Virus record (IMG/VR): IMGVR_UViG_3300046534_001237
Coordinates: 1 to 57,306 of that record
Direction: 5' to 3' (one strand)
DNA: 57,306 bases
Source: a virus
Taxonomy: Duplodnaviria; Caudoviricetes
Shown in pieces: positions 6,372 to 8,660 of this stretch; the first letter of the stretch is position 1, and the number at the start of each line of letters is the position of its first letter. A program made the translations under genes and the position numbers. The notes beneath the pieces are model-generated. The model was not told where the DNA came from, searched no databases, and saw only the letters and a program-made list of their open reading frames with translations.

Positions 6372-7477
6372 TGAACGTACTATCACTTTTTAACGGAATG
6401 TCATTCGGAAAAATGGCACTAGAAGCTTTAGATGTAAAAGTTCAAAAGTATTACAGCGCCGAAATTGATAAATACGCAAATCAGGCAACGCAGGCTCTAT
6501 TCCCTGGCACCATCCAATTAGGTGATATTACGGATTGGGAAAATTGGGATATAGATTGGGCTAACATCGATTTAGTTACTGGCGGGTTTCCCTGTCAAGC
6601 GTGGTCTATGGCCGGTAAGCAGTTAGGCGACAAAGACGAGCGAGGTATGCTGTTCTGGGTGATGCTAGATATTATGAAGCACGTTAAACATCACAACCCG
6701 AACGCTGATTTTTTGATTGAAAACGTCAAAATGAAGAAGGAGTTTGAGCAATATATTACAACTCACACTGAAAACGCGCTAGGGAAGGTGAACAAGATTT
6801 TAATCAATAGCGCGCTAGTATCTGCTCAGAATCGTAATAGATATTACTGGGCTAGCTTTGAAGTTGGACAGCCAGAAGATAAAGGAATTTTACTTAGGGA
6901 TATTATCGAGCCATTATGCCGCGATGTAAATTCTGATGGCTGGCACAAGTGGTGGTTAGAAAAGCAAGAATTTCAAATCAAAAAGAAATATTCAGCAATA
7001 TGCAATGATGGCTCAACAAATAAAGCCATCTGCATGACTGCTAGGCAATATGCTAGCTGGAACGGGAGTTTCCTTATTATGCAAAAACCTCGAGGTAATA
7101 ACCTAGGGGGGGAAAGGGCGATTGATGGTAAAACACCTTGCTTGAGTGCTAATTCATGGGAGCATAATAATCACTTAATGTTTAAATCTGCATCTGAAAG
7201 GGGGCGTGGTTTCGAAGTTAGAAAAGACGATAAAGCTAACTGCTTATTATCTGACGGGCATCAATCAAGATGGTTAGCTAATGATGGCGCCAAGTATCGA
7301 AAACTAACACCGCGCGAATGCTTTAGGCTTCAAACAGTACCAGAGCACCACATAGACACGCTATTAAGCGCGGGTATTAGCAACTCGCAACTCTATAAAA
7401 TGTGCGGTAACGGGTGGACGATGGAGGTTATAAAACATATTTTCAAATCAATGGTAGATGGTTTAATCAATGAATAG
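6371..7477 (+). CDS. C5-cytosine DNA methyltransferase 1
   Basis: VLSLFNG (motif I), GGFPCQ (IV), ENV (VI), QNRNRYYW (VIII), RKLTPRECFRLQ (IX), GNG (X). Confidence 0.93.
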   Translation: MNVLSLFNGMSFGKMALEALDVKVQKYYSAEIDKYANQATQALFPGTIQLGDITDWENWDIDWANIDLVTGGFPCQAWSMAGKQLGDKDERGMLFWVMLDIMKHVKHHNPNADFLIENVKMKKEFEQYITTHTENALGKVNKILINSALVSAQNRNRYYWASFEVGQPEDKGILLRDIIEPLCRDVNSDGWHKWWLEKQEFQIKKKYSAICNDGSTNKAICMTARQYASWNGSFLIMQKPRGNNLGGERAIDGKTPCLSANSWEHNNHLMFKSASERGRGFEVRKDDKANCLLSDGHQSRWLANDGAKYRKLTPRECFRLQTVPEHHIDTLLSAGISNSQLYKMCGNGWTMEVIKHIFKSMVDGLINE

Positions 7478-7488
7478 AGGAACAAATA

Positions 7489-8586
7489 ATGTGGATATTA
7501 CCAAAGAACTACCAACTGTCATCAGCTTTTGCTCAGGATATGGTGGAATCGAAAGAGGACTTGACCTTGCCGGGTTTGAACATAGAGTCGTCTGTTATGT
7601 GGAGATCGAAGCCTTCGCCATTGCGAACTTGGTCAACAAGATGGAAAGAGGGCAGCTACCTCCCGCACCTATTTACACGAATCTTAAAACCTTCCCTGCA
7701 CACCTCTTTCGAGACAAGGTTAGCCTTATTACTGGCGGTTATCCCTGCCAACCCTTCTCTGCCGCAGGAAAAAGACTCGGAGACAACGACCCCCGACACC
7801 TCTGGCCGTACATTAGAGAGCACATCCGATCAATACGACCTCTTCGGTGCTTCTTTGAAAACGTCGAAGGCCACATCAGCTTGGGGCTTAGAGAAGTCCT
7901 GTCCGATTTGGAAGGGCTTGGTTACTCGCAAACGTGGGGAATATTCAGTGCGCGTGAAGTCGGCGCACCTCACCAAAGAAAGCGAGTCTATATCTTGGCG
8001 AACTCCAGCTGTAGGGGAATCAGGCATAACGATAGACCGACTTCAGGCGAAGGATGGCCAGCCGCCGAAGCTAGGCGAGAGGTTGTACGACAAGGTGACG
8101 GGGAGGAACTGCCAGTACGGTCTGAATCAGCAAGTAGCGATAGTTCAGACGTGGGCGACTCCAAAAGCGAACATGCCAGGGATGTCAGCGAAAACGTCGG
8201 GTCGACCAGTGGAGAAGTCAACGCACTTATCAACTCAGGTGGCTCTAGCAGAAGGGATGATAGACCCTATCACGGGGAGACTATGGCCGGCTCCGACCGC
8301 CAGCGCTCACACGGGAGCTGGGAAGGGGCCGAAACAGAAGGGTGGAGTGAATCTACAGACTGCGGCACTGAACTGGCCGACTCCCTCAGCCCACGAAGCA
8401 AGACTAGGATATCAGGACAGGAGCGACCCGACGAAGAAGGGTGCCCAAGAGAGCTTGACCACAGTAATAGTGAACAGTGCAGGTGGGAGGCAACAATGCA
8501 GTGGCCACCTGAACCCGACGTGGGTAGAGTGGTTGATGGGTGTCCCGACAGGGTGGACAGAATTAGGCTCTTGGGAAACGCAGTAG
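7489..8586 (+). CDS. Alternative-frame partner (beta chain) of C5 methyltransferase 2: WxTP-repeat region and motif-IX-like segment
   Basis: 365-codon ORF nested in the alpha gene; ATG 7 nt after GAGGA; WRTP/WATP/WPAP/WPTP repeats; HLNPTWVEWLMGVPTGWT. Confidence 0.75.
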   Translation: MWILPKNYQLSSAFAQDMVESKEDLTLPGLNIESSVMWRSKPSPLRTWSTRWKEGSYLPHLFTRILKPSLHTSFETRLALLLAVIPANPSLPQEKDSETTTPDTSGRTLESTSDQYDLFGASLKTSKATSAWGLEKSCPIWKGLVTRKRGEYSVRVKSAHLTKESESISWRTPAVGESGITIDRLQAKDGQPPKLGERLYDKVTGRNCQYGLNQQVAIVQTWATPKANMPGMSAKTSGRPVEKSTHLSTQVALAEGMIDPITGRLWPAPTASAHTGAGKGPKQKGGVNLQTAALNWPTPSAHEARLGYQDRSDPTKKGAQESLTTVIVNSAGGRQQCSGHLNPTWVEWLMGVPTGWTELGSWETQ

Positions 8587-8660
8587 TACCTCAGACAGCA
8601 GCTAAAGCATGGATCACATTGAGCTCAATAAACTACAGCCAACCAAAAGTTACAGAGTAA
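7491..8660 (+). CDS. C5-cytosine DNA methyltransferase 2, alpha chain (start is GTG 7491 or ATG 7470)
   Basis: FCSGYGG (I), GGYPCQPFS (IV), ENV (VI), HQRKRVY (VIII), RIRLLGNAVVP (X); no motif IX in this frame. Confidence 0.9.
   Translation: MDITKELPTVISFCSGYGGIERGLDLAGFEHRVVCYVEIEAFAIANLVNKMERGQLPPAPIYTNLKTFPAHLFRDKVSLITGGYPCQPFSAAGKRLGDNDPRHLWPYIREHIRSIRPLRCFFENVEGHISLGLREVLSDLEGLGYSQTWGIFSAREVGAPHQRKRVYILANSSCRGIRHNDRPTSGEGWPAAEARREVVRQGDGEELPVRSESASSDSSDVGDSKSEHARDVSENVGSTSGEVNALINSGGSSRRDDRPYHGETMAGSDRQRSHGSWEGAETEGWSESTDCGTELADSLSPRSKTRISGQERPDEEGCPRELDHSNSEQCRWEATMQWPPEPDVGRVVDGCPDRVDRIRLLGNAVVPQTAAKAWITLSSINYSQPKVTE

Follow-up and report, generated by a model that had tools for sequence, protein, structure and literature searches.

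We examined a stretch of 57,306 nucleotides that makes up a complete virus record with direct terminal repeats (IMG/VR record IMGVR_UViG_3300046534_001237, Caudoviricetes; hereafter the window), focusing on a gene formed by two plus-strand open reading frames (ORFs) that overlap nearly end to end (the alpha ORF in frame A and the beta ORF in its +1 frame, frame B; Table 1). We consider this gene a heterodimeric C5 DNA methyltransferase, with both chains read from the same 1.1 kb in two frames, at a probability of about 0.75. The sequences show that both frames stay open and are constrained, and that the double start at their head is conserved. We infer that both frames are translated, that the two chains bind each other and that both are needed for methylation.

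Neither frame A nor frame B has a stop in the shared DNA, whereas the third plus-strand frame has 32. The parts of the enzyme are divided between the two frames. Frame A matched the Pfam family DNA_methylase (PF00145; E 9.3e-30, residues 16–216) and has the catalytic motifs of a one-chain enzyme (I, IV with PCQ, VI with ENV, and VIII). The match covers profile positions 2–197 of 324, so alpha stops short of a full-length one-chain match with variable region, IX and X, and TIGR00675 scored 82 bits, under its cut-off of 100.65. The full-length match is missing because the motif IX segment sits in the +1 frame. In our alignment of alpha sequences (A2), columns G16, G19, P85, C86, E123, N124, R163 and R165 are invariant, as are G362, N363 and P367 of motif X, and the spacer between the core and pre-X has no majority residue throughout. 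For beta, no Pfam or NCBIfam family matched, a profile built from our beta alignment (A1) found nothing significant among PDB sequences (best E 0.2), and an ESM Atlas search found only viral 'hypothetical protein' clusters (score 0.96). Modelled alone with AlphaFold2 from A1, beta gave a poor model (mean predicted local distance difference test (pLDDT) 51.9, predicted template modelling score 0.24), with only residues 181–210 above 80. Within A1, T298 and P299 are each invariant or nearly so. The number of WxTP modules differs between relatives, and these modules are likely the target-recognition part of beta. The end of beta, LNPTWVEWLMGVPTGWT, we take to correspond to the canonical motif IX, given its likeness to that motif and its position just before X; no profile confirmed this assignment. 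An earlier sequence-only reading of this DNA had described two stop-free ORFs on one strand, an alpha frame with motifs I–VIII and X around a filler-like stretch, and a beta frame with the structured part and a motif-IX-like end. All of this stood: the coordinates were reproduced, the motifs were located, the spacer proved unconserved, and the WxTP modules and LNPTWVEWLMGVPTGWT were placed as listed in Table 1.

Table 1. Features of the two-frame methyltransferase gene (positions in the window).
Feature	Position	Strand	Details
Alpha ORF (frame A)	GTG 7491..8660	+	389 aa plus stop; phrog_363, E 1.2e-57
Alternative alpha ORF start	ATG 7470..8660	+	396 aa; in frame A
Frame A stop codon	8658-8660	+	
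Beta ORF (frame B, +1 frame)	ATG 7489..8586	+	365 aa plus stop; phrog_1008, E 2.8e-17
Shine-Dalgarno-like GAGGA	7477..7481	+	7 nt upstream of frame-B ATG, 9 nt upstream of frame-A GTG
ATGTG double start	7489..7493	+	ATG 7489 for beta, GTG 7491 for alpha
Alpha catalytic core	7527..7988	+	motifs I, IV, VI and VIII
Alpha motif I, FCSGYGG	7527-7547	+	
Alpha motif IV, GGYPCQPFS	7734-7760	+	
Alpha motif VI, FENVEG	7854-7871	+	
Alpha motif VIII, HQRKRV	7971-7988	+	
Alpha spacer, residues about 167-340	7989..8510	+	unconserved, low complexity, only kept open
Alpha pre-X, EPDVGRVVDGCPDRVDR	8511-8561	+	shares bases with beta LNPTWVEWLMGVPTGWT
Alpha motif X, LGNAVVP	8571..8591	+	beta stop TAG 8584-8586 falls within
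Beta N-terminal part, residues 1-169	7489..7995	+	overprints alpha core
Four beta WxTP modules	7996..8385	+	WRTP 7996, WATP 8152, WPAP 8284, WPTP 8374; candidate target-recognition part
Beta motif-IX-like end, LNPTWVEWLMGVPTGWT	8509-8559	+	immediately before X
Doubly conserved stretch	8509..8561	+	beta LNPTWVEWLMGVPTGWT and alpha EPDVGRVVDGCPDRVDR from the same bases

Judged by codon statistics, the two open frames are more than a product of chance. We shuffled synonymous codons while keeping each protein and its codon usage. For the window gene, the shuffles gave on average 3.9 frame-B stops in the 5' 169 codons (probability of none 0.004). For frame A in the 3' 196 codons, the average was 5.5 (probability of none 0.002), and the observed number is zero in both cases. 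All 28 complete genes of the window gene's clade likewise had zero frame-B stops in the 5' part (shuffle means 2.2–4.3) and zero frame-A stops in the 3' part (shuffle means 1.4–9.5), with 12–34 stops in the third frame. Six loci were skipped from this set (cut by contig ends or lacking the motif pattern), and two 5'-truncated loci had been excluded beforehand. Alternatively, the second frame could be due to an accident of base composition, to decay of a gene in which two indels compensate each other, or to faulty assembly. The G+C content of the gene (0.50 in the 5' part and 0.56 in the 3' part) does exceed that of the rest of the genome (0.42), which lowers the frequency of stops. However, the third frame has its 32 stops at equal composition, the shuffles that preserve codon usage still predict stops, the layout recurs in 91/91 evaluable loci down to about 28% beta identity, and the stretch is tiled by contigs of run X1, possibly the source sample, that show no differences from it. 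Within the reach of sequence evidence, this explanation is already refuted by the comparative data, and we give it a negligible chance.

The overprinted half of beta is also conserved at sites that alpha leaves free. In a +1 overlap, a third codon position that is synonymous in alpha always falls on a second codon position in beta. We used the mean pairwise third-position difference at alpha codons with an invariant amino acid, across 22 clade sequences. This was 0.631 (n = 8) in the singly coded tail past the beta stop and 0.262 (n = 74) in the dual-coded 5' 168 codons, or 0.672 (n = 6) and 0.295 (n = 29), respectively, at fourfold sites. The difference was 0.08–0.19 in codons 1–84, 0.54 in codons 85–112 and 0.24–0.27 in codons 113–168, which indicates that beta 1–84 and 113–168 are under purifying selection and that 85–112 form a free linker. 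The fixed third-position sites coincide with conserved beta residues, and in the IX/pre-X stretch the alpha third positions are almost invariant. The claim that some 170 beta codons overprint the catalytic core was thus borne out, with 169 residues and clear constraint on alpha's third positions where beta overlaps.

Relatives in which motif X has moved to the other frame provide a natural experiment. A sister group (L089–L103 and L105; proteins of this type are P0051, P0130, P0146, P0123 and P0138) has the same ATGTGG start and beta N-terminus, with IX, a linker, a separate pre-X and X all in frame B. At 8/9 examined loci of this type, frame A ends 9–11 codons after the motif VIII sequence QRKRV, with many stops beyond. 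Frame A of the ninth locus, L104, continues without a stop as far as a relic pre-X, where it ends; from its sequence, this locus looks like an intermediate between the two types. Frame A shuts once motif X moves to B, which argues that the open spacer of the window type serves to reach motif X; and with frame A closed, a working enzyme could not be made at these loci from one frame without a frameshift. We consider these loci the strongest sequence evidence that the window-type alpha spacer is selected and that frame B is translated. In L089–L102 and L105, where the 3' part is coded in frame B only, G+C content is 0.41–0.44 in that part vs 0.44–0.46 in the dual-coded 5' part. The raised G+C content of dual-coded DNA looks like a signature of two open frames, not of foreign origin. 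At the protein level, the frame-B pre-X (e.g., VPRVVEACDDRVDR in P0146) resembles VGRVVDGCPDRVDR of the window's frame A. An origin of the separate IX and pre-X/X by tandem duplication of the doubly coded segment was considered and is unsupported by DNA alignment: local alignment of IX against pre-X in L104, L089, L094 and L105 gave scores of 5–8, vs shuffle means of 6.2–6.8.

The double start is a constant feature of the clade. All 34 clade genes whose starts were taken from the tblastn match begin with NTGTGG (31 ATGTG, 2 GTGTG and 1 TTGTG). We also compared 47 distinct 5' ends, using a search pattern that itself required NTGTGG. A Shine-Dalgarno-like 4-mer starts at -16 to -7 in 41 of them. 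In 26 of the 47, there is no other frame-A start codon from the preceding frame-A stop to motif I, which leaves the GTG at +2 as their only possible alpha start; this absence of any alternative, read from the sequences, carries weight for the use of that GTG. An upstream in-frame ATG is present in nine ends, including the window. In other clades, the two starts are 4–13 nt apart (L049, L050, L058, L061, L062, L066 and the phages S9-5 and C75C1), and in some the beta start lies 142–217 nt inside alpha.

The sequence-only reading had both frames opening at ATGTG after GAGGA. This arrangement was confirmed, and one point goes beyond it: frame A has a further possible start codon, ATG 7470, overlapping the stop with which the upstream methyltransferase gene ends (TAG 7475–7477), so that GTG 7491 is not the sole possible alpha start in the window. 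If alpha started at ATG 7470 by termination-reinitiation at the upstream stop, the two chains would not compete for one start. We consider this not very likely for several reasons. In L003, which is 81% identical in beta, the sequence shared with the window begins only at about 7477, the contigs from other samples part from it directly before 7476, and more than half of the distinct 5' ends have no upstream start at all. The conserved unit begins at the Shine-Dalgarno-like site, which makes ATG 7470 a matter of local context. A start at ATG 7470 would in any case be compatible with two chains and may coexist with use of GTG 7491.

Beta could also start internally, as described for the E. coli enzyme M.EcoHK31I (compared below), in which case ATG 7489 and the first 60–170 frame-B codons would be a read-through leader or untranslated. 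Among the 91 evaluable loci, 28, all of other clades, open beta only 49–205 nt past motif I, and there are further Met codons at residues 18 and 37 of the window's beta. As reported for M.EcoHK31I, beta works without its first 42 residues and internal Met starts are possible (PMC2836561). In the window's clade, however, frame B is open from the ATG in every complete gene, where 2.2–4.3 stops would be expected, codons 1–84 are the most constrained part of beta (0.08–0.19 vs 0.63), the ATG sits 7 nt past the only Shine-Dalgarno-like site, and beta 1–10 form the best-defined predicted contact with alpha. We therefore regard an internal start in the window as improbable. The sequence-only reading had held that stops in the 5' half of the beta frame of homologs would imply an internal start or a frameshift; there are none in the window's clade, and the distant clades do show them at the 28 loci above.

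We predicted the alpha–beta complex from our own unpaired alignments (A2 for alpha, 42 rows; A1 for beta, 53 rows). The interaction prediction score from aligned errors (ipSAE) was 0.86, 0.85 and 0.85 in three runs, vs 0.00 for the best of 3 controls. The mark for this score is reached by 58/80 solved complexes and 2/110 mismatched pairs, counts that hold only roughly here because our own alignments were used. The three runs share at least 46% of contacts, with a partner pLDDT of at least 59. The main predicted interface places alpha pre-X/X (338–368) against the motif-IX-like end of beta (337–362). In addition, beta 1–10 are predicted against alpha 44–64, where the pairs with the least error are alpha 60–62 with beta 2–4, and beta 35–64, 75–89 and 141–159 also contact alpha in the model; no contacts are named for beta 90–140. 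This predicted contact map mirrors the independently derived third-position constraint profile. The model supports binding between alpha and beta. With it, the checks that had been proposed alongside the sequence-only reading (conservation of both frames and of ATGTG in homologs, synonymous-site constraint, and prediction of the complex) have all come out in favor of two chains: both frames are open in all related loci examined, NTGTG is present throughout the clade, and the ipSAE was about 0.85.

To see how widely the layout occurs, we drew on viral contigs and protein databases. A scan of viral contigs with frame B gave 599 stretches, of which 593 were confirmed and 80 kept. In 80/80 of these, as well as in two named phages found by blastn (Phage C75C1 and the P22-like Salmonella phage S9-5), frames A and B are long and open around motif IX, where the third frame runs for 2–54 codons (with one exception that runs beyond the gene end). 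The two named phages have the same layout, with frame A alone annotated. With the loci fetched using two further relatives, 112 loci were classed by motif patterns, 21 of which could not be evaluated because of contig ends or pattern misses. In all 91 evaluable loci, motifs I–VIII are in one frame and motif IX is in its +1 frame. In 78 of these, no stop interrupts frame A between motif I and motif IX; frame B opens before motif I in 50/78 and past it in the other 28. In the remaining 13/91, frame A is closed before motif IX and frame B is open from before motif I.

Among 4300 candidates, 1673 database proteins matched frame B at E ≤ 1e-3. Of the frame-B matches listed, 119/120 have no Pfam domain, and the only name among them is 'hypothetical protein'. 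The C-terminal 196 residues of beta matched 5357 cluster representatives at E ≤ 1e-3 and 533 at E ≤ 1e-10. PHROGs labels both phrog_363 (alpha) and phrog_1008 (beta) as DNA methyltransferase and keeps them as two unrelated families; the labels are silent on the shared gene. At the nucleotide level, blastn against phage records gave only short matches (5–9% of the query in 14 records), and megablast of window positions 1–20000 gave two 44-nt matches.

Some proteins differ from the common layout. In P0125, a database singleton from one contig, I–VIII, the WxTP modules, IX, the linker, pre-X and X are apparently in a single frame; a search for its DNA yielded nothing beyond relatives of the ordinary two-frame kind and an end piece of 168 nt (L117). 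Five others (P0086, P0265, P0266, P0277 and P0320) switch frames at odd places and have no motif X, and probably represent either contigs with indels or frameshift variants that occur naturally. Such proteins bear on the possibility that one polypeptide is made by programmed frameshifts, with frame A read through motif VIII, a +1 shift into B for the WxTP modules and IX, and a -1 shift back into A for X. The order of the parts along the DNA (I–VIII, recognition part, IX, X) does match a monomeric enzyme, and P0125 makes a covalent version conceivable. However, two opposite shifts would be required and a conserved slippery site was not seen in the sequences. Frameshifting also leaves unexplained the open, constrained state of frame B across the 5' 169 codons and the absence of frame-A stops from the 3' 196 codons. 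P0125 is a single case, and the five odd proteins lack motif X or switch frames as indel contigs do. We consider a frameshifted single chain very unlikely.

Several points weigh against two chains made from a fully overlapping gene. Translation of either frame is predicted from sequence, and a search of RNA runs listed none that contains window positions 6300–9500. Avoidance of stops, rather than beta's sequence, may explain part of the synonymous-site constraint. The GTG at +2 is forced by beta's conserved Met-Trp, so that its conservation is no independent proof that this start is used, and the in-frame ATG 7470 could replace GTG 7491 as the alpha start in the window; an upstream ATG of this kind is present in 9/47 distinct 5' ends. 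The late opening of beta in 28/91 loci means that its N-terminal part is not universally needed. Likeness to frame B or to two of its relatives was the basis on which loci were collected, and some are near-duplicates, so the counts are neither independent nor an unbiased sample. Finally, the predicted contact between IX and X is similar to contacts within monomeric enzymes of solved structure, and that portion of the complex score may therefore reflect the predictor's recall of such structures.

Considering the evidence as a whole, we favor two chains made as follows. Ribosomes at the single GAGGA site would begin at either ATG 7489 or GTG 7491, each committing to one frame, the former giving beta and the latter alpha; in the window, alpha might also be made from ATG 7470, coupled to the upstream gene. 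Alpha would supply the S-adenosylmethionine-binding and catalytic motifs I–VIII, read through the spacer and end in pre-X and motif X, as the C-terminal helix. Beta would supply the WxTP modules and the motif-IX-like segment, the latter packing against alpha pre-X/X, and its N-terminal 169 residues, overprinted on the core, would clasp alpha, the two chains together making up a two-domain enzyme. The double start might in this way set the subunit ratio. We give even odds to a more far-reaching version, in which one ribosome-binding site with ATG and GTG 2 nt apart splits ribosomes to give subunits in fixed ratio from a fully dual-coded 1.1-kb gene, beta's 169 overprinted residues are a functional clasp, exchangeable WxTP modules set the target, and thousands of entries named 'C5 methyltransferase' or 'hypothetical protein' are half-annotated two-chain enzymes.

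A two-polypeptide methyltransferase, M.EcoHK31I, was reportedly described by Lee, Kam and Shaw in 1995. According to the accounts in PMC2836561 and PMC3404938, this enzyme (E. coli HK31, YGGCCR) consists of an alpha and a beta polypeptide that are both required for activity; alpha has motifs I–VIII, X and the predicted target recognition domain, and beta, with motif IX, is encoded wholly inside the alpha gene, in another frame of the same strand. [quoted passage not shown] Set against these published descriptions of M.EcoHK31I, there are also differences. Its beta is smaller, nested and internally started, whereas the window's beta has 365 aa and starts 2 nt before the alpha GTG. The overlap in the window is complete, with beta as long as alpha, both starts behind one Shine-Dalgarno-like site and a long constrained N-terminal part in beta. 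Unlike the predicted recognition domain in M.EcoHK31I alpha, the only conserved sequence between VIII and X in the window lies in beta. The internal beta starts of other clades are as described for M.EcoHK31I. Among known systems, M.EcoHK31I is the closest, and by analogy the window gene would be a fuller-overlap, co-initiating variant of it.

In M.AquI (CYCGRG), as summarized in PMC3404938, the larger subunit has I–VIII together with some of the variable region, and the smaller subunit has the rest with IX–X. On this account, M.AquI and the two-frame gene are alike in being split after motif VIII into two chains. The sister group L089–L103 and L105 shares the M.AquI division, with I–VIII in alpha and the rest, including IX and X, in the second chain, whereas motif X of the window stays in alpha. 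The passages on M.AquI in PMC3404938 describe no full-length overlap of frames. Monomeric bacterial C5 methyltransferases (PF00145) have the same catalytic motifs in the same order as alpha. One of them is the upstream neighbor of the two-frame gene (6350..7477, plus strand), an ordinary single-frame C5 methyltransferase that matches profile positions 1–322 of 324 in one frame, which the two-frame gene does not. Our literature search, which covered few subscription journals, did not find the full-overlap or double-start layout in phage methyltransferases, or its spread, described. A layout proven for one E. coli enzyme is yet most likely common to thousands of half-annotated phage genes.

Should both frames be translated, this gene would rank with the longest full-length overlaps on one strand whose two products belong to a single enzyme, and would be a clean natural case of two start codons on one ribosome-binding site coupling the synthesis of subunits. 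As to annotation, the records of the two named phages list frame A alone, and predictions of phage methylation specificity that seek the recognition domain in the annotated chain would then be looking at the wrong protein. Among the relatives are natural variants open to study, with X in alpha or in beta, with an internal beta start or, in one possible case, with a fused form; these illustrate how overprinted genes come about and are resolved. The division into two chains also bears on engineered split methyltransferases, for which M.EcoHK31I has been used according to PMC2836561.

The two-frame gene may also move as a unit. Contigs from other samples match the gene, yet diverge just upstream of 7476 and past about 8613–8631, and one low-depth contig of run X3 (depth 2.6, side 26) joins 7475 to 8654, omitting the entire gene. 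On the basis of this divergence and this junction, it is weakly suggested that a cassette spanning the Shine-Dalgarno-like site to the stop comes and goes; the sample contigs compared with the window are fragmented, and the parts that they leave uncovered carry no meaning.

The phage has two cytosine methyltransferase genes in tandem, the single-frame gene at 6350–7477 being followed by the two-frame gene. An HNH endonuclease gene (8667–9113, plus strand; HNH_5, E 1.5e-10) begins 7 nt past the alpha stop, and the operon closes at a terminator-like hairpin (9410–9434). Upstream in the same operon are a 620-aa protein with an N-terminal YqaJ-like recombinase/exonuclease domain (2497–4359, plus strand) and an RNase_T-type exonuclease (4929–5504, plus strand). 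The opposite strand has two giant ORFs (9972–14663 and 14928–19346, minus strand): the 1471-aa product had no Pfam match, and the 1562-aa product matched ART-PolyVal (the ADP-ribosyltransferase domain of polyvalent proteins, E 6.6e-15) and LPD38 (E 3.2e-35).

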